Positions 9,989-16,867 of a stretch of 64,000 bases of DNA are shown piece by piece. Both the position numbers and the translations under genes were made by a program. The first letter of the stretch is position 1, and every line of letters starts with the position of its first letter. The notes under the pieces were generated by a model. It saw only the letters and a program-made list of their open reading frames with translations. It had not been told where the DNA came from and ran no database searches. Source of the stretch: a virus; the IMG/VR virus record IMGVR_UViG_3300027848_000009, positions 32,001 to 96,000 of that record, one strand, 5' to 3'.

Positions 9989-10221
9989 GCAACGACCGTG
10001 TTTACTTGACTACCAGCCACTACCGCCACCACTCCACAAAGACGCTTGCCGACACTCTGGCGGAAGCCAGCCGGACCGACTGGACGCCGTTCGATGTCTA
10101 CGAAATCGACCTAACCCGACCTGATCGGCCGTCGATCCGTCTTGTCGCTTCACGCAGCAAAGGTGATCCGCCCCCGGTGACGGTGGAGACGCCGCGAGAT
10201 GCGCACACTGTCACCAGTTGA
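9985..10221 (+). CDS. Hypothetical protein
   Basis: ATGA overlap. Confidence 0.45.
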   Translation: MSNDRVYLTTSHYRHHSTKTLADTLAEASRTDWTPFDVYEIDLTRPDRPSIRLVASRSKGDPPPVTVETPRDAHTVTS

Positions 10222-10259
10222 TCTATCACACCCCATCACGCACCAGAAAGGCCAGCACC

Positions 10260-10472
10260 ATGACCACCAACCGAGCAGACACGAAGAACCACTGCGTGCA
10301 TTGCGAACGCCAGATCACCCTCGATACGAGGTGGCCCCGCCCGAAAGGATCATTGGGCATCTGGTATCACGACGACCTTTTGGACTACGACTCCTCAGGC
10401 TATTCGTGCGGCCTCGACGACGGCGAAGACAACGAAGCCGAGCCTTACTCAACCCAGACGATTCCTCGATGA
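10260..10472 (+). CDS. Small zinc-binding hypothetical protein
   Basis: CVHCERQI..WYH..C; GAAAGG upstream of ATG 10260. Confidence 0.5.
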   Translation: MTTNRADTKNHCVHCERQITLDTRWPRPKGSLGIWYHDDLLDYDSSGYSCGLDDGEDNEAEPYSTQTIPR

Positions 10473-10630
10473 GTGCCTTCCGCATGGAGCGCGACATGAG
10501 CGACCCGATCCTCATCGGCGGCGACTGGCTCGAAGACCCTGGCAGTCGTTACGTGCCGGTGGACTACCAGTCGGTGTTGGCGACTGTGACGGCTGGTATG
10601 GGGACACGTCAAGTCGATTACGAAGAAGCG

Positions 10631-10659
10631 TTGCTTTCCCACACAGAGTCAGGTAACCT
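10631..10659 (+). promoter_or_regulatory. Promoter for the leaderless macrodomain gene
   Basis: TTGCTT-17 bp-TAACCT, ATG 7 nt downstream. Confidence 0.55.
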
Positions 10660-10665
10660 GTTGAC

Positions 10666-11112
10666 ATGATCGAATATCATGAATCCACCGACCTGTTCGA
10701 GATCGACGTAGAAGCAATCTGTCACGGGGTGAACACCCGTGGAATTGCTGGCGGTTTAGCCGCATCCGTGTTCAGCCGGTTCCCCGAGAACTATGAGGCG
10801 TACCAGAGAGAGTGCTCCCAAGGGAGGCTCACCCCCGGCATGATGATGAGCCACTACGAGAAAGACCAGTACGTCTACAACCTTGTGACCCAGAAAGAAC
10901 CCGGGCCTGACGCAAAGATCAACCTGATCGAATATGCGTTCACCGCAATGAGAAGCCATGCCATGGAGAACGATGTGAAATCCATCGGATGCCCTCAGGT
11001 AGGGGCCGGTATCGGAGGTCTTCAATGGAAATATGTGGATCAGGCCATCAAGAAGGTGTGGAGTACGGCACAGGGTGTCACCCTCCACATTGTCACCCGT
11101 GATAAGTTCTGA
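10666..11112 (+). CDS. Macrodomain protein (Poa1p/TARG1/DarG-like)
   Basis: DLF..AICHGVNTRG..GGLA..YNLVTQ..IGCPQVGAGIGGLQW. Confidence 0.85.
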   Translation: MIEYHESTDLFEIDVEAICHGVNTRGIAGGLAASVFSRFPENYEAYQRECSQGRLTPGMMMSHYEKDQYVYNLVTQKEPGPDAKINLIEYAFTAMRSHAMENDVKSIGCPQVGAGIGGLQWKYVDQAIKKVWSTAQGVTLHIVTRDKF

Positions 11113-11450: not shown

Positions 11451-12206
11451 CTAGGCCGCCCAGCCTGCGTTGTAGCCGTACAAAAAGTCGATCTGAGGGA
11501 CCGCATCCAGTTGTGCTGTCATGCGTGTCGCACAGATCGGTGTTCCATGTTCGTTGTACTGGTCGAGCCGTGTGATCACGTTCCCGTAGGCGCGTCCTTC
11601 GATCTGGTGTGTCAGGTACACCTTCTCGAAAGCGGCACCAGTGAACCAGTGGGTGACCAGCGACTGGGTTGATCCGAAGCGTCCGACTAGGTGGGCGAGG
11701 TTGATGGTGCCGAAGTCGGCGAGGACTGCTGACGCGGCGAGGTCGATGTCGTGGCCCTCCAGCCACATCATTGCCCCTCCACGTCGGAACCATCCTTTCA
11801 GATAGTCCCAGATGTTGTCAGCGCCACCGATCCCCCAGTCCCATTCGCTTTCACGGAACTGTGGGACGGTCACGGTTGGTGTCACGACACCATCAGGTTG
11901 GCTGTCTGTTGATGAGAGGACGTTGGAATGTGCGATGAGCCGGTCACCCTGTGTGAGAGTCACTACAGTGACCCGTGACGAGTCAATTCGGTTCCGTGTA
12001 ACAGTCACGGGTTCGTCAGGGTTCGCCTTGGCGTAGAAGAACGTCGATGTGTTGACTGGTCGTCCATCTTGAGCACCTGAAATTGTGGCCACCGCATGAA
12101 GGACTCCACCGAAGACGAACGGCTTTGCACCTCCTGTCCAGATCGAATGCTTCGACTCGGGATGAAAGTGCTCGTCTTCAGCGGAGTGCGATATGAACGT
12201 GCTCAT
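11451..12206 (-). CDS. Double-hotdog thioesterase-family protein
   Basis: W..VFGGVL, AVLAD, QSLVTHW, G..ICATRM pattern. Confidence 0.6.
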   Translation of the reverse strand: MSTFISHSAEDEHFHPESKHSIWTGGAKPFVFGGVLHAVATISGAQDGRPVNTSTFFYAKANPDEPVTVTRNRIDSSRVTVVTLTQGDRLIAHSNVLSSTDSQPDGVVTPTVTVPQFRESEWDWGIGGADNIWDYLKGWFRRGGAMMWLEGHDIDLAASAVLADFGTINLAHLVGRFGSTQSLVTHWFTGAAFEKVYLTHQIEGRAYGNVITRLDQYNEHGTPICATRMTAQLDAVPQIDFLYGYNAGWAA

Positions 12207-12523
12207 TGATCCCTGTCCATGGCGTGACCGATGGCTTTCAATATGTACTGTTCGACAGCGGTACTGATCGTGTCGGTGGCTAAAGGCCCGTCGATGGTGG
12301 CCACATGGCTCCCATCAGTCGACATAATGTTGATGGTGTCTACCCGTAGGCTCCTGATCGTTTCAGCCGATTCTCTCAGCAGATGCGACGTGACGTCCAC
12401 ATGGAAGGTGTTTGCGTCCATCACGTCAGCGAGCGCCGTCAAAGTGTCCTCGATCGGTTCGTCACCTACCTCCACCTTGACGACGGATCTCTCGGCAGCC
12501 TGACACTCTCTCGGTTGATTCAT
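12203..12523 (-). CDS. Hypothetical protein
   Basis: Stop/start overlaps on both sides. Confidence 0.55.
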   Translation of the reverse strand: MNQPRECQAAERSVVKVEVGDEPIEDTLTALADVMDANTFHVDVTSHLLRESAETIRSLRVDTINIMSTDGSHVATIDGPLATDTISTAVEQYILKAIGHAMDRDQ

Positions 12524-12798
12524 GGAGTGAATGATAGCGCAATCGACTGACCTACGTAGACGTTCGATGATCCGTTGTTGAGGGTGATCGTGTCATGGAC
12601 GGCGTTCTGGATGTTGCCGTTGCAGTGCTTCTCAACGGTTGACCAGATGGTGGGGTCTTGGTGTGTGACTGTTCCGTATTGGGAGTTGCAGGTGTATGAG
12701 TCGAGGGCTTCGATTCGGTTGAAGATGAATAGGATGGTGAGGAAGGAGGCGGTGAATAGGGCGATGTAGGTGAGGGTGTTGTGGATGCGGTGACTCAT
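12520..12798 (-). CDS. Membrane-anchored LysM-like protein
   Basis: N-terminal TM segment then TIWSTVEKHC..ITLNN..VYVGQSIAL; TAACCT box shortly before ATG. Confidence 0.55.
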   Translation of the reverse strand: MSHRIHNTLTYIALFTASFLTILFIFNRIEALDSYTCNSQYGTVTHQDPTIWSTVEKHCNGNIQNAVHDTITLNNGSSNVYVGQSIALSFTP

Positions 12799-12958
12799 GG
12801 TGGTTAGGTTATCGCCTCTTCGACTCTAACCTTCCAACAGGCGCCATGCTGCTACATGTCTCTCTTATGCCACGACAGTCACCACGACGTCCATAGCTAC
12901 CCGTGGGCCTCTTGAGCCATCACACACGCCACCACGCTCGACACAGGCGCACACAGGG

Positions 12959-13093
12959 CCACACCTGACCCCTCCATCGCACATCAACCCCAGCACACAC
13001 CGCAGACCCCACACCCCCACCCCCACACCTGACCCCTCCATCGCACATCAACCCCAGCACACACCGCAGACCCCACACCCCCACCCCCACACC
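12959..13093. repeat. 64-bp C/A-rich tandem duplication
   Basis: ACACCTGACCCCTCCATCGCACATCAACCCCAGCACACACCGCAGACCCCACACCCCCACCCCC starts at 12961 and again at 13025. Confidence 0.9.
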
Positions 13094-13130
13094 CACAGCC
13101 CCGACAAACTTTTTCGATCACACAAACAAC

Positions 13131-13145
13131 CAGCGGGGGCCGCTG
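13131..13145. other. Short inverted repeat at the skew flip point
   Basis: CAGCGG-GGG-CCGCTG; C/A-rich to the left, G/T-rich to the right. Confidence 0.6.
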
Positions 13146-13260
13146 TGTGGGGTTTTTGTTTTGGGGGGGTTGTGTTTAGTTTTATCTGGGTGGTGTTAGT
13201 GGGTGTAGGGGGGTTTGTGTTTTTTTGTGATGTGGTTCCAGATGTGTTTGATCTATTGTT

Positions 13261-13951
13261 TTATTGTCGTGGGGTTGGTTGTGTGTGGTGTGTTTTGGGG
13301 TGGTTGGTTGGGGTTTGTGGGTTTTGGGGGTTGTGGGGGTGTGGGTGTTTTCGTTGTGGGTGGTGGTGGGGGTGGTGTTTTTTTGTTTGGTCTGGTGGGT
13401 GTTGTTTAAATTTGTGGGCGGTTTTTTGGTGTGTGTGGTGGTTGCGGGTGGTGGGGTTGTACCAGTTTGGTTGGTTGTGGTTGTTGTGGGTTGCCCATGA
13501 TTGTGTGATGTCGGGGAGGCGGATGTGGGTGTGTTTGGGTGTTCCCCAGTGGTGGGTGTGGTTGTGGATGATTTGGATGGTTTGGGCGATTGATGCTCCG
13601 GGCCAGCCGATGTTGTTGAGTGTTTGGTTGGTGTGGTTGGCGAGGATGTGGGGCCATGTGTGTTGGTGGTTGAGGGCGTATCCGGCGGTGATTGAGTTTC
13701 TTGCGGTGGGGAGGTCGGGGTTGGTGGTGGAGTTGGTGTCGTGCCAGTTTTGTTGGTTGACGGTGTAGGTGTGGTTGGGGATGGGGGTGTGCCAGTTTTG
13801 GCCTTGTGTTGTTTTTGTTCCGTTTAGATTTGTTTGTATGTGTGGGGGGGGTGAAGTGTTGGTATTGGATGTTTTTGTGGTGTTCTCATGCGGTGTGGTA
13901 GTCGAAGTCGATGATTGTTGGGGTGGTTTGTTTTAGGTATTCGGAGAGCAT
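13261..13951 (-). pseudogene. Eroded SGNH/GDSL-like gene
   Basis: Minus frame reads YTVNQQNWHD..PDLPTARNSITAGYAL..TWPHILA..NNIGWPGASI..WGTPKH..LPD; upstream ATG 13951 (AGGA RBS) is in another frame with an in-frame TGA and a C8 run. Confidence 0.6.
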
Positions 13952-13995
13952 GGTTTGTCCTGTGGGTTTTGCCGTCGTGTTGGTTGGGTTTAGAT

Positions 13996-14181
13996 TTATC
14001 TGTTCTGTTTGGTTGGTGGGGGTCCGTGTTCGAGGGCCTCTTCCAGAAGTTTCCCGTCAATTGAAAATGTATTTTTTTCCTTGTTGTATCTTTCGCTGTG
14101 GGCGGCGAAAACTATCTCTCCGTCTTCAACGATGGAGAGTGCGGCGTCGTGGCTCGAATCGTTGATGCCGTAGATCCTCAT
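13996..14181 (-). pseudogene. Truncated NodU/CmcH-type carbamoyltransferase N-terminus
   Basis: MRIYGINDSSHDAALSIVEDGEIVFAAHSERYNKEKN; stops after 61 aa on entering the low-complexity tract. Confidence 0.75.
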
Positions 14182-14924
14182 CGCGGATCGTCGATATTCC
14201 AGTCGGGCGGAATTTTTTGTGGGTCGACATTTGGGATTTGTTCGGAGGGAATCATGTTTATAATTTCCCTGTAGTTGCTGAATCGTTTCCACCAGTCGTT
14301 GGGTAGATTTGGCAGGAGGTTGTGAATCAGGGTGCGGGCGTGTGGCCAGAATGATGTCATGACGAAACGTTCGCCTGAGGTGACCTCTGTGACTCCATGT
14401 AGGTATTGATGTGAGGCCGGGAACGCGATGAACATTCCGGGTTGTGGCCTGACTTCGATTCCTTGGTGCTCGAAGTAGGTTTGTCCACCTGTGAAGTCGT
14501 TGTTGAAGTAGAGCACGGACGCGATGTCGTATTGGTGGAGGCTGAGCGGGGCGTGTTCGCCCCTGATGGGGCTGAAGATGAGCGTTCCGTCTGAGTGTCC
14601 AACATCTGAGTGTGCTGACTGCTTGTCTCCCTGCACCCATTTACGCATGGCGAAGACGTTTGGTTGGAGAACGGTTTCTCCGAAAAAATCTTCGATGTGT
14701 GTTTTGGCTCGGAGGGAGATTTCCTCAAACAAATCTTGGAGGAAACTCCATTCGTTCTTATCCCTCAGCACGTTGGTGTCTTGTGACCAATGTGAACGCT
14801 CTTGGTAGTCTGCTCCTGCTGGCTGAACCCAAGGACATTCAGTGTTGAAGAAGTGCATGAATGTTCCGCACTCATTCTCTGAGAGGAAATTCGGCGCCAC
14901 GTAAAGTTGGGGGGCGCTACTCAT
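14178..14924 (-). CDS. 2OG-Fe(II) oxygenase, prolyl-hydroxylase-like
   Basis: AHSD, SVLYFNNDFTGG, YLHGVTEVTSGERF. Confidence 0.9.
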   Translation of the reverse strand: MSSAPQLYVAPNFLSENECGTFMHFFNTECPWVQPAGADYQERSHWSQDTNVLRDKNEWSFLQDLFEEISLRAKTHIEDFFGETVLQPNVFAMRKWVQGDKQSAHSDVGHSDGTLIFSPIRGEHAPLSLHQYDIASVLYFNNDFTGGQTYFEHQGIEVRPQPGMFIAFPASHQYLHGVTEVTSGERFVMTSFWPHARTLIHNLLPNLPNDWWKRFSNYREIINMIPSEQIPNVDPQKIPPDWNIDDPR

Positions 14925-14925
14925 G

Positions 14926-15270
14926 TCAGTCGTCTTCTGTTGCGTCGTCTTCTGTTGCGTTTAGGTTGTCATGATAGGAGGCGGCTAGGATTTGCGCCTG
15001 ACGCTCCATCGTGATTGGGTCCAAAATCTTGGGGAGGCTCACTTCAAGATGGCCGATAATTTTGTAGGCGATAACGCTGTTCTCGGTGTCGACGTAGTGG
15101 GGTTGAAGGAGACGAAGGTAGTCCCCGTCCCACATGACCACATAGATGCGTGAATCGTCTCCGTCACCAAACTTGAAGGTACACATTTGCGTGTGCATCG
15201 CATGCCCGGCGGTGCTTAGTTCGGAAATTTGGTCGCTGTCGACGGTTGGGATTTCTGTCTCGTCACTCAT
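14926..15270 (-). CDS. Hypothetical protein
   Basis: In operon; TAGGAT box shortly before ATG. Confidence 0.6.
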   Translation of the reverse strand: MSDETEIPTVDSDQISELSTAGHAMHTQMCTFKFGDGDDSRIYVVMWDGDYLRLLQPHYVDTENSVIAYKIIGHLEVSLPKILDPITMERQAQILAASYHDNLNATEDDATEDD

Positions 15271-15299
15271 ACTTTTATCCTAGATGATGGTTGTGTTGT

Positions 15300-15884
15300 T
15301 CATTGTTGGATAGCATAAAAAATTGAAGCAAGTTGATGGATGTATAGGTTCCAACAGTCGGTCCAGAAAACTGTTCCGTTCGTCGGGTCTTGTTGACCGG
15401 CTTTCCAGAACTTTTTGTGCCTATCGAAAATCTGCCTGTTGGCGACTCCGACGACCCATGCCGTGTTGAACCGTTCGATCTCAGAGGAGTTGTTGGCGCT
15501 CCGTTGGAGAGAAACGAAGGCGTAGTAGTCGGCCATTTGATGTTCGTGGTTGTAGGCCGGAAGCGTTGCCTCGTAGTTGGGTCTAGGGGCGACTGTTCGA
15601 TCTTTTGTTTTGACCTCGATGGTCTTTTTTTCGAGTTCAGCGTTGGTGATTCCGAGGTCGTGCTTCGTGGTGTACATGGGCTCGAATTGTATTTTGTTGT
15701 CCTCAAGTACCCGTTCGGACACGATCTCGCCGAGGCATCCGACGATGTTGGCTTCTTCCTTGCGATGTGATCCTCGAAACACCGGGAGGCTTTCAGCCCT
15801 TTCGGTAGCCTTTCGATACATATCGGGGGTGATATTGACTTTCAGGAAACTGGTGTTTTGTCTGCCGGGCACGTCTCGTATCAA
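15300..15884 (-). CDS. PD-(D/E)xK nuclease-like protein
   Basis: GCLGE..HDL..TIEVKTK. Confidence 0.55.
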   Translation of the reverse strand: MIRDVPGRQNTSFLKVNITPDMYRKATERAESLPVFRGSHRKEEANIVGCLGEIVSERVLEDNKIQFEPMYTTKHDLGITNAELEKKTIEVKTKDRTVAPRPNYEATLPAYNHEHQMADYYAFVSLQRSANNSSEIERFNTAWVVGVANRQIFDRHKKFWKAGQQDPTNGTVFWTDCWNLYIHQLASIFYAIQQ

Positions 15885-15899
15885 CCATACGCAGATCCG

Positions 15900-16592
15900 T
15901 CAACGGTTGTTTTGTTCTGAAGCGAACTGTCCTGTCGTGAGGGCGTAGGGCGGATTGTCGATATGCCATACATTGACCACGATGACCTGCTTGATGCCAG
16001 ACTCGATCGGAGTCGTCTCATGGAGGCGGTGGCCAGCGTCGAATACGACAAGCCGGTCGGGTTTGCACGCGATCCGTTCCCGACGCTCGATCGGAGAGAT
16101 CAAAGATGCGGTGTTTTCCTCTTCGAGTCTCATCGAGCCTTCATCGATGCCGTGTTCGTGAATCTCAAGAAACGACCCTGTTGATTCGCTGAATCCGTAC
16201 CAGACGCAGCCGATCCTCGGACCTTGGAACCATTGAGTGTCCGCGTACAGAAATGTGTCTTCGTCGACGTGCCTAGCAAGAAATTGGCCGTGAACGAAGG
16301 TGCGAACCCAGTATTCGAAGCCTGCCACTTCCTCTTCTGGGAAGGGTAGAAGTCCTGTATCCCGCCATATTTTCTCGATGAGGCGTTGCCGGTTGGTTTG
16401 GGCGGGGGATTCCCACCATCCTGACCAGAAAGCGTATGGCGCGTAGCAGTCAGATTGTTCTGAGTGAAATTCGTTGAGAGTCTTCCCTATGTTTTCTCCG
16501 GGCATTTCCGGAGGGAAGAATGATTGATCTTCTCGTATCGGGTGTTCAAGGTCTGTTCCGGATACGAAATTATCAAAAACGAATAGGGTCAT
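15900..16592 (-). CDS. 2OG-Fe(II) oxygenase
   Basis: GFEYW, HVDEDT, DRLVVFDAGHRLHET, VVNVW. Confidence 0.75.
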   Translation of the reverse strand: MTLFVFDNFVSGTDLEHPIREDQSFFPPEMPGENIGKTLNEFHSEQSDCYAPYAFWSGWWESPAQTNRQRLIEKIWRDTGLLPFPEEEVAGFEYWVRTFVHGQFLARHVDEDTFLYADTQWFQGPRIGCVWYGFSESTGSFLEIHEHGIDEGSMRLEEENTASLISPIERRERIACKPDRLVVFDAGHRLHETTPIESGIKQVIVVNVWHIDNPPYALTTGQFASEQNNR

Positions 16593-16867
16593 TTGTTGAA
16601 GATGGTGACCAGTCGCGCCCGCCAAGATGGCTTCTCAAGGATCGTCACGTAAGTGATTTTTTCCGGCTCGGAAACGGGCGCCGTAACTGTTTCTATGTGT
16701 TGTTTTGGGCGCGGATCGAGGCCAGCGTATGGCCCTACGATCTTCCTAGGTGCAGCTTTTTTTGCGACCGTCTTTTTGACCGTAATCTTCTTAGCGGCAG
16801 ATTTTTTTGCTGCCGGTGTCTTTTTGACCGCTTTCTTGACGGCCTTTTTTTTCTCGCTGTTTGCCAT
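16589..16867 (-). CDS. Lys/Ala-rich histone H1-like protein
   Basis: KKAVKKAVKKTPAAKKSAAKK repeats. Confidence 0.6.
   Translation of the reverse strand: MANSEKKKAVKKAVKKTPAAKKSAAKKITVKKTVAKKAAPRKIVGPYAGLDPRPKQHIETVTAPVSEPEKITYVTILEKPSWRARLVTIFNK

Follow-up and report, generated by a model that had tools for sequence, protein, structure and literature searches.

A skew island of fixed polarity and the one-way decay of an esterase-like gene in a phage genome from freshwater metagenomes

The window, a stretch of 64,000 nucleotides comprising bases 32001-96000 of a single phage record of 155,887 bp, contains a short island in which the two DNA strands differ sharply in composition. The island probably arose through a strand-asymmetric process that acts on DNA from a point at 13.13 kb and recodes the genes residing there, with one esterase-like pseudogene decaying in a single direction after a deletion of 3.27 kb. 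On alignment with its intact orthologs this gene is dead, and its changes run one way. The skew changes sign at a defined point and is independent of transcription and translation. Its cause is probably mutational, or a bias of repair, and not selective; contig-level data are compatible with biased gene conversion and with selection on DNA composition alike.

The G/T-rich tract extended from 13148 to 14050 on the plus strand, the minus strand being A/C-rich. Between 13201 and 14000, G+T reached 78-98% per 100 bp, compared with a genome-wide mean of 50.6% (standard deviation 7%, 200-bp windows over all 155,887 bp), confirming that the tract is not random, as stated in a preliminary description of this DNA. 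GC skew was +0.64 and AT skew -0.61 at 13501-14000. A+C on the minus strand amounted to 96-100% at 13301-13400 and to 8-20% at 12951-13100. The amplitude was maximal beside the flip and fell with distance on both sides, the steep part being approximately 1 kb long. The centre of the skew, described before as near 13.1 kb, was placed at about 13.13 kb. The skew peak adjoined a hairpin at 13131-13145, with a 6-bp stem (5 G-C pairs) and a 3-nt loop, which marks the exact point of the flip and resembles a terminator on the minus strand. Folding of the 91-nt centre was not exceptional (z = -1.7). An A/C-rich stretch at 132400-132950 of the genome was rejected as a skew island, being an in-gene Thr/Pro-rich linker of ACG/ACT/CCG repeats.

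The tract was present in freshwater metagenome runs. Contigs of four runs showed zero base differences wherever they covered it, in a comparison made on assembled contigs. The only variants among the run contigs were G9 for G8 in one low-depth contig and a missing copy of a 64-bp repeat in three runs. The genome encodes a WhiB protein. Its closest ribonucleotide reductase in the public phage collection was only 47% identical, indicating that this collection holds no close relative.

Sequence searches of Pfam, PHROGs and PDB with the window peptide alone gave no meaningful match, and blastn and tblastn searches of the INPHARED phage collection returned nothing for the tract. A homolog of the minus-frame peptide exists but was reached only via relatives. 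The related IMG/VR contig L001 was found in a scan with the neighbouring 2OG-Fe oxygenase (79% identical protein). In L001 the oxygenase is followed by an intact carbamoyltransferase of 485 aa, two paralogs of normal composition (416 and 271 aa), an intact 280-aa ortholog at 10169-11011 and an HNH endonuclease. This ortholog has G-D-S, TGG and no frameshift. Window positions 13959 to 13269 aligned with L001 10161-10858 at 84.6% nucleotide identity, and the window gene is the third paralog of a family standing in tandem in the relatives. Three more intact orthologs were found, two as proteins (P0001 and P0002) and one in record G001, which is complete at 137 kb. The more distant record G004 contains a syntenic ortholog of ordinary composition, with 31% A+C at third positions.

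The pseudogene, of a predicted SGNH-fold, esterase-like accessory protein, was delimited by nucleotide and protein alignments on the minus strand from an ATG at 13951 to 13261, with the original stop at 13263-13261. An in-frame TGA at codon 22 (13888 to 13886) replaces a TGG (Trp) found in all intact orthologs, which agrees with the suggested origin of this stop. The frameshift proposed near a C8 run was located as a +1 shift relative to the orthologs, which lack it, at the homopolymer itself (13844-13851; G8 on the plus strand). C9 instead of C8 occurred in one other run and in protein P0003, which represents the same dead gene from another assembly; neither length restores the frame. The SGNH-like reading of the minus strand was present, and the nucleophile motif reads R-N-S (AGA AAC TCA) at 13701 to 13693, a site at which the skewed intact orthologs carry G-D-S and the family at large G-C-S. 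Gly and Asp of the motif were lost and Ser was retained. Alignment with L001 placed two window-specific deletions within 13296-13365, one of about 108 nt and one of about 45 nt, the second removing a conserved His block (HPG.H.H.H.AE). Cys144 to Arg and Trp279 to Arg were further changes of the window copy relative to all intact orthologs. A+C was 82, 81 and 95% at codon positions 1, 2 and 3. Judged from these alignments, the window copy is dead and its lesions are derived.

The protein family comprised 1,676 representatives at E <= 0.001, approximately 300 aa long and clustered at 50% identity. Its consensus contains a G-C-S nucleophile block, a Gly block and a D-x-x-H-P-G block. The nine best PDB matches of the family profile were all GDSL or TesA proteins (E 8e-4 to 0.05, blocks I and II). 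The AlphaFold model of the recoded L001 protein had a mean pLDDT of 90.5, and its top Foldseek matches were SGNH folds only (TesA, CE2 esterases and PAF-AH; probability 1.00, TM 0.3-0.45). In Pfam, only 4 of 63 scanned members matched a model at E <= 0.01. The L001 ortholog scored 20.7 bits against the Lipase_GDSL_2 gathering cut-off of 32.9, and the window peptide did not match this model. The Pfam threshold was not reached. The name SGNH-fold, esterase-like accessory protein is predictive and is based on the PDB profile matches and the AlphaFold and Foldseek results. The family resembles the SGNH/GDSL hydrolases, such as E. coli TesA and CE2 acetyl-xylan esterases, in the predicted SGNH alpha/beta fold and a Ser nucleophile motif of the G-D-S/G-C-S type. 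It differs in being divergent and about 300 aa long, in having mostly G-C-S instead of G-D-S and in its modest TM-scores. The D-x-x-H of block V was present in the unskewed orthologs, P0002 and G001, and its Asp was lost in P0001 and L001; part of the segment is missing from L001 and all of it from the window. The recoded intact orthologs keep an open frame and are putative esterases, the predicted fold being that of the L001 model.

Esterase-like genes stood in tandem after the carbamoyltransferase and 2OG-Fe oxygenases (L001:8153-10187; L034:7414-9608; family of P0004-P0151). In record G004, a minus-strand fusion of ADP-ribosylglycohydrolase and dual-specificity phosphatase (524 aa, L034:5722-7296) was located after the esterase-like genes. 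A gene of the tryptophan-halogenase family (Pfam E 2e-101) was present at 124413-125897 of the phage genome (L035:7413-8897).

The three intact orthologs in relatives allowed the direction of change to be read directly. In the unpolarised comparison with L001, 63 sites were G/T in L001 and A/C in the window and 8 the reverse (p ~1e-11), with G/A differences of 28 versus 0 and T/C differences of 19 versus 4. When the window, L001 and L003 were compared over 236 columns, 27 changes fell on the window branch, of which 18 went from G/T to A/C and 0 the opposite way, and the branches of L001 and L003 had 9 and 7 changes, which were balanced. L003 covers only the first 236 columns, and polarisation beyond them rests on the protein sequences P0001 and P0002. 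With these two proteins, 28 residues derived in the window were obtained for the whole gene. They held 26 base changes from G/T to A/C and 0 reverse: 11 G-to-A, 12 T-to-C, 1 G-to-C and 2 T-to-A. G-to-A and T-to-C thus made up 23 of the 26 polarised changes, and the spectrum was asymmetric before (63:8) and after (26:0) polarisation, in accordance with the strand-specific pressure suggested at first.

Intact orthologs and pseudogene were not separated by dN/dS (0.63 versus 0.59), a ratio that is uninformative here because the bias compresses the synonymous ceiling. Between relatives, pS was 0.17-0.18 inside the island and 0.68-0.81 in flanking genes. The low values may represent a two-state compositional ceiling or could stem from recent exchange of the island between phages.

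In the intact L001 ortholog A+C at third positions was 92.5%, and in the adjoining HNH gene 94.2%, with 66-75% at positions 1 and 2. Since intact orthologs are already at about 92% A+C at third positions, the bias predates the death of the gene. The first impression of a gene caught being erased by directional mutation is supported, with refinements: the gene is dead and its changes are one-directional, but the bias is older than its death, which accompanies the 3.27-kb and the two internal deletions. Just past the flip, a co-oriented intact DUF5872-like gene showed only 10.9% (L001) and 6% (G001) third-position A+C. Because neighbours in the same orientation are skewed in opposite senses, explanations at the level of transcript or protein are excluded; the process that makes the skew acts on DNA. 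The unskewed syntenic ortholog of G004 implies that the recoding arose in place.

The HNH homing-type endonuclease gene is situated in the A/C-rich arm directly before the flip (L001:11082-11594; L033:6100-6588), with 93-94% A+C at third positions. It was missing from the window's genome. As a general cause of islands the endonuclease was rejected, with none in the window's genome nor at a second island in any relative.

The junction of the 3.27-kb deletion was located at 13960-14033. The missing segment corresponds to L001 6893-10160, that is, most of the carbamoyltransferase gene and the two paralogs of normal composition, and was kept in L001, G001 and G004. An N-terminal remnant of the carbamoyltransferase, full length 480-486 aa in relatives, was found on the minus strand at 14008-14190, with approximately 55 homologous codons from 14190 to 14033. 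Farther on, three minus-strand genes at 14178-16625, two 2OG-Fe oxygenases and one unknown, had third-position A+C of 69, 66 and 62%, only 1-1.8 standard deviations above the genome mean of 52.7% (standard deviation 9.2), and polarised counts detected no ongoing A/C gain in them. That the deletion had exposed these genes to extra A/C gain seemed supported by unpolarised counts. Polarisation with G001 assigned the asymmetry mainly to the L001 lineage, and the idea was dropped.

Directly left of the hairpin the skew was inverted for about 250 bp. This mirror tract (12860-13110), A/C-rich on the plus strand with minus-strand A+C down to 8%, is non-coding in the window. At its position, relatives carry the intact DUF5872-like gene with G/T-rich third positions, which is gone from the window. 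A weak alignment was obtained between the hairpin region and the L001 intergenic region that follows the HNH gene. At 12959-13086 the A/C-rich arm contains a 64-bp sequence twice in perfect tandem, with one copy fewer in three other runs. Each 64-bp unit contains a CAGGTGT-like word, read on the minus strand, and the word occurs three times in the L001 intergenic region (around 11671, 11733 and 11750), beside a 7-bp inverted repeat. The words could be binding sites. Imperfect inverted repeats between the arms (73-79% complementary) were discounted as evidence, because an A/C-only arm facing a G/T-only arm gives roughly such levels (about 50% by chance, our own estimate). Beyond the inverted arm, a minus-strand gene for a small membrane-type protein (12520-12798) had 83% third-position A+C, and its orthologs in L001 and G001 were unskewed or weakly skewed (63% in G001). 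These A/C-rich third positions do not fit a single mirror-symmetric source. A scan of viral contigs gave no relative of the left-hand neighbour gene at 11451-12206. The view that the bias fades over several kb on both sides held for the weak tail in the flanking genes, but the steep part spans only about 1 kb, the left side inverts for about 250 bp and polarised counts detected no continuing gain in the tail.

A second island was located outside the window at 137800-140000 of the genome (L004:2800-5000), where the plus strand is A/C-rich and then G/T-rich. It contains intact proteasome-like and WhiB genes with 98% and 92% third-position A+C, respectively. The end of a metallophosphoesterase gene was recoded as well, within the same third-position range of 92-98% A+C, and beyond it the flip leads into minus-strand genes where the composition is G/T-rich. 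Among 20 related contigs, the island at this locus ranged from absent (L008-L010, L016-L018, L024) to extreme (L021, L022), and in every relative that had it, the plus strand, oriented by the phosphoesterase gene, was A/C-rich and became G/T-rich downstream. In relatives the flip can fall within a gene. A+C at third positions of one small gene family was 63% in L008, 2% in L013 and 97% in L021 and switched mid-gene in L022, tracking the position of the gene relative to the flip. That one family is recoded to A/C, to G/T or half to each, depending on the side of the flip, again means that the process acts on DNA. G004 has an extreme island at this locus and none at the first one, so islands are gained and lost independently. 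No common sequence motif or hairpin was found at the second-island flips, and Pfam scans around this island revealed no replication module. A copy of the esterase-like family was also located inside the second island of L022 (6249-7037).

The preferred reading is the following. A process radiating from a fixed point, at the first locus the hairpin at 13.13 kb, would deplete G and T on the strand that points to it with its 3' end, and so form an island of about 1 kb. Equivalently, G and T would be enriched on the strand running 5' to 3' away from the flip. The island would predate the phage lineage and recode whichever gene occupies the site. In relatives, the third paralog would have survived with an open frame, A/C-saturated third positions and many Thr, His, Asn, Gln and Pro residues. 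In the lineage of the window, the 3.27-kb deletion would have taken most of the carbamoyltransferase and the two sister paralogs, and the remaining paralog would have lost its constraint. From then on it would have decayed one way, by G-to-A and T-to-C changes (TGG to TGA, G-D-S to R-N-S), a homopolymer frameshift and two internal deletions.

Viewed on the G/T-rich strand, C-to-T and A-to-G were about equally frequent, and C-to-G and A-to-T formed a minority. Two cases might produce them. An origin firing at the flip would leave the lagging-strand template, with its 5' end at the flip, repeatedly single-stranded. Alternatively, a strand might be remade repeatedly from the flip by break-induced or repair synthesis and be damaged while single-stranded or copied with G-T mispairs. 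The observed polarity is expected from exposure of the lagging-strand template or of a newly made strand, and damage to resected 3' tails would give the opposite polarity. Direct signs of replication initiation, a nick or a break were not found at 13.13 kb. The ratio of 26:0 is very strong for spontaneous damage alone. Tentatively, and with considerable doubt, the flips may be fixed sites at which DNA synthesis starts recurrently (origins, recombination or break hotspots), and the island their mutational footprint. If so, the sequence by itself would suffice to map initiation sites in phages that have not been cultured, and there would be a simple, comparative and testable model for the mechanism of GRINS-type skews, one that includes the opposite recoding of one family.

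An unlikely alternative that deserves weight is a bias of repair or of gene conversion in the vicinity of a recombination hotspot. A heteroduplex of fixed polarity would be corrected so that G/T remains on one strand, which is a drive and not a raw mutation bias. This would produce the same mirror polarity and a decay over about 1 kb, as conversion tracts do, and it agrees with the low synonymous divergence between relatives inside islands (0.17-0.18), with the link between GRINS and gene conversion (PMC8256042) and with the HNH homing endonuclease gene within the island in L001 and G001. However, the tract has no second copy in the genome, an HNH gene is absent from the window's genome and from the second island of every relative, and the changes of the pseudogene are lineage-specific singletons, not blocks held in common with a relative.

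Selection on the composition of the nucleic acid appears improbable. The selected product would be an unstructured, C-rich and G-poor RNA for Rho loading or a palindrome-free DNA that escapes restriction. In its favour, RNA of A and C only is unable to form base pairs and is similar to a Rho loading site, a terminator-like hairpin closes the tract, and several phage lineages keep islands at syntenic positions. Against this, co-oriented neighbour genes have opposite skews, one family is A/C-recoded in one phage and G/T-recoded in another, flips fall inside genes and many close relatives lack any island. Opposite recoding, intragenic flips and island-free relatives make a purpose at the level of sense-strand RNA unfitting.

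Horizontal transfer of a foreign segment of odd composition, without change in place, is very improbable. The mobile HNH endonuclease gene in the island of L001 and G001 would suit it, as would the nucleotide identity between relatives, which is higher in the island than in the flanks. Yet the syntenic G004 ortholog and some 1,700 family representatives have normal composition, the amplitude grades with distance from the flip irrespective of gene borders and derived directional changes occurred within the window lineage itself. An assembly or base-calling artefact, despite the low-complexity sequence, the homopolymer length differing in one low-depth contig and assemblies that break at the 64-bp repeat, can be dismissed almost entirely, as contigs of four runs reproduced an identical sequence, homologous islands occur in contigs of other metagenomes, the skew follows codon position and frames are open in relatives.

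Among known systems, vertebrate mitochondrial DNA has a genome-wide strand asymmetry of one sign, with a gradient attributed to single-stranded time. The phage islands are alike in C-to-T and A-to-G changes on the G/T-rich strand and in proteins of A/C-sense genes rich in Thr, Pro, His, Asn and Gln. They differ in being islands of 1-2 kb with a mirror flip and in third positions that are far more saturated (92-98%). In yeast and cancer, strand-coordinated clusters of mutations are reported around double-strand breaks and for break-induced replication; they are of kilobase scale, affect one strand per side and are attributed to long single-stranded DNA (PMC9262586, PMC6786661). They share with the islands the kilobase scale and the restriction to one strand on each side of a start point. 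They are single events, whereas the phage islands represent an evolutionary steady state, and damage to resected 3' tails would give the opposite polarity, so that only exposure of the newly made strand, as in break-induced replication, fits the phage. A diversity-generating retroelement was rejected: the tract has no repeat partner, the changes are G-to-A and T-to-C, not A-to-N, and no reverse transcriptase was found among the neighbours scanned.

The islands also carry a warning for annotation, in that such tracts hide real genes; Pfam was blank on the window copy. An open frame and a recognisable fold can persist at 92-98% third-position A+C. In a freshly dead gene, where most of the protein constraint is relaxed, the direction of change becomes visible (26 to 0). 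At the same syntenic genes, close relatives extend from unskewed to saturated. The islands occur in single copy, which frees them of confounding by repeats, and their polarity around a point is fixed.

GRINS are regions of intense, correlated GC and TA skews of more than 500 bp, strongest at third codon positions, whose proteins are recoded to Pro, Thr, His and Gln on one side and to Gly, Val, Cys and Trp on the other (Nivina et al. 2021, PMC8256042). Their sign changes are abrupt, within 1 kb; they are common in Actinobacteria and overlap endonuclease and phage genes (PMC8256042). Their cause is not known, and an idea of tautomers and error-prone synthesis was offered, which fits the case of a remade strand (PMC8256042). 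[quoted passage not shown] The phage tract corresponds in length (about 900 bp) and in skew (GC +0.64, AT -0.61). The emphasis on third positions is likewise shared, with 92-98% A+C in intact genes versus 65-75% at positions 1 and 2, and so are the correlated GC and TA skews and the way in which amino acids are recoded. When both islands were compared with the 155,887-bp genome by blastn, the 64-bp tandem repeat was the only duplication. Single copy, fixed syntenic points, one constant polarity and a pseudogene that exposes the direction of change set the phage islands apart. By this comparison they would be filed beside GRINS, as working alike, and not as members under the definition of that paper. 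The phage case is a well-documented instance of a known, unexplained skew phenomenon, with features that make it easier to test.
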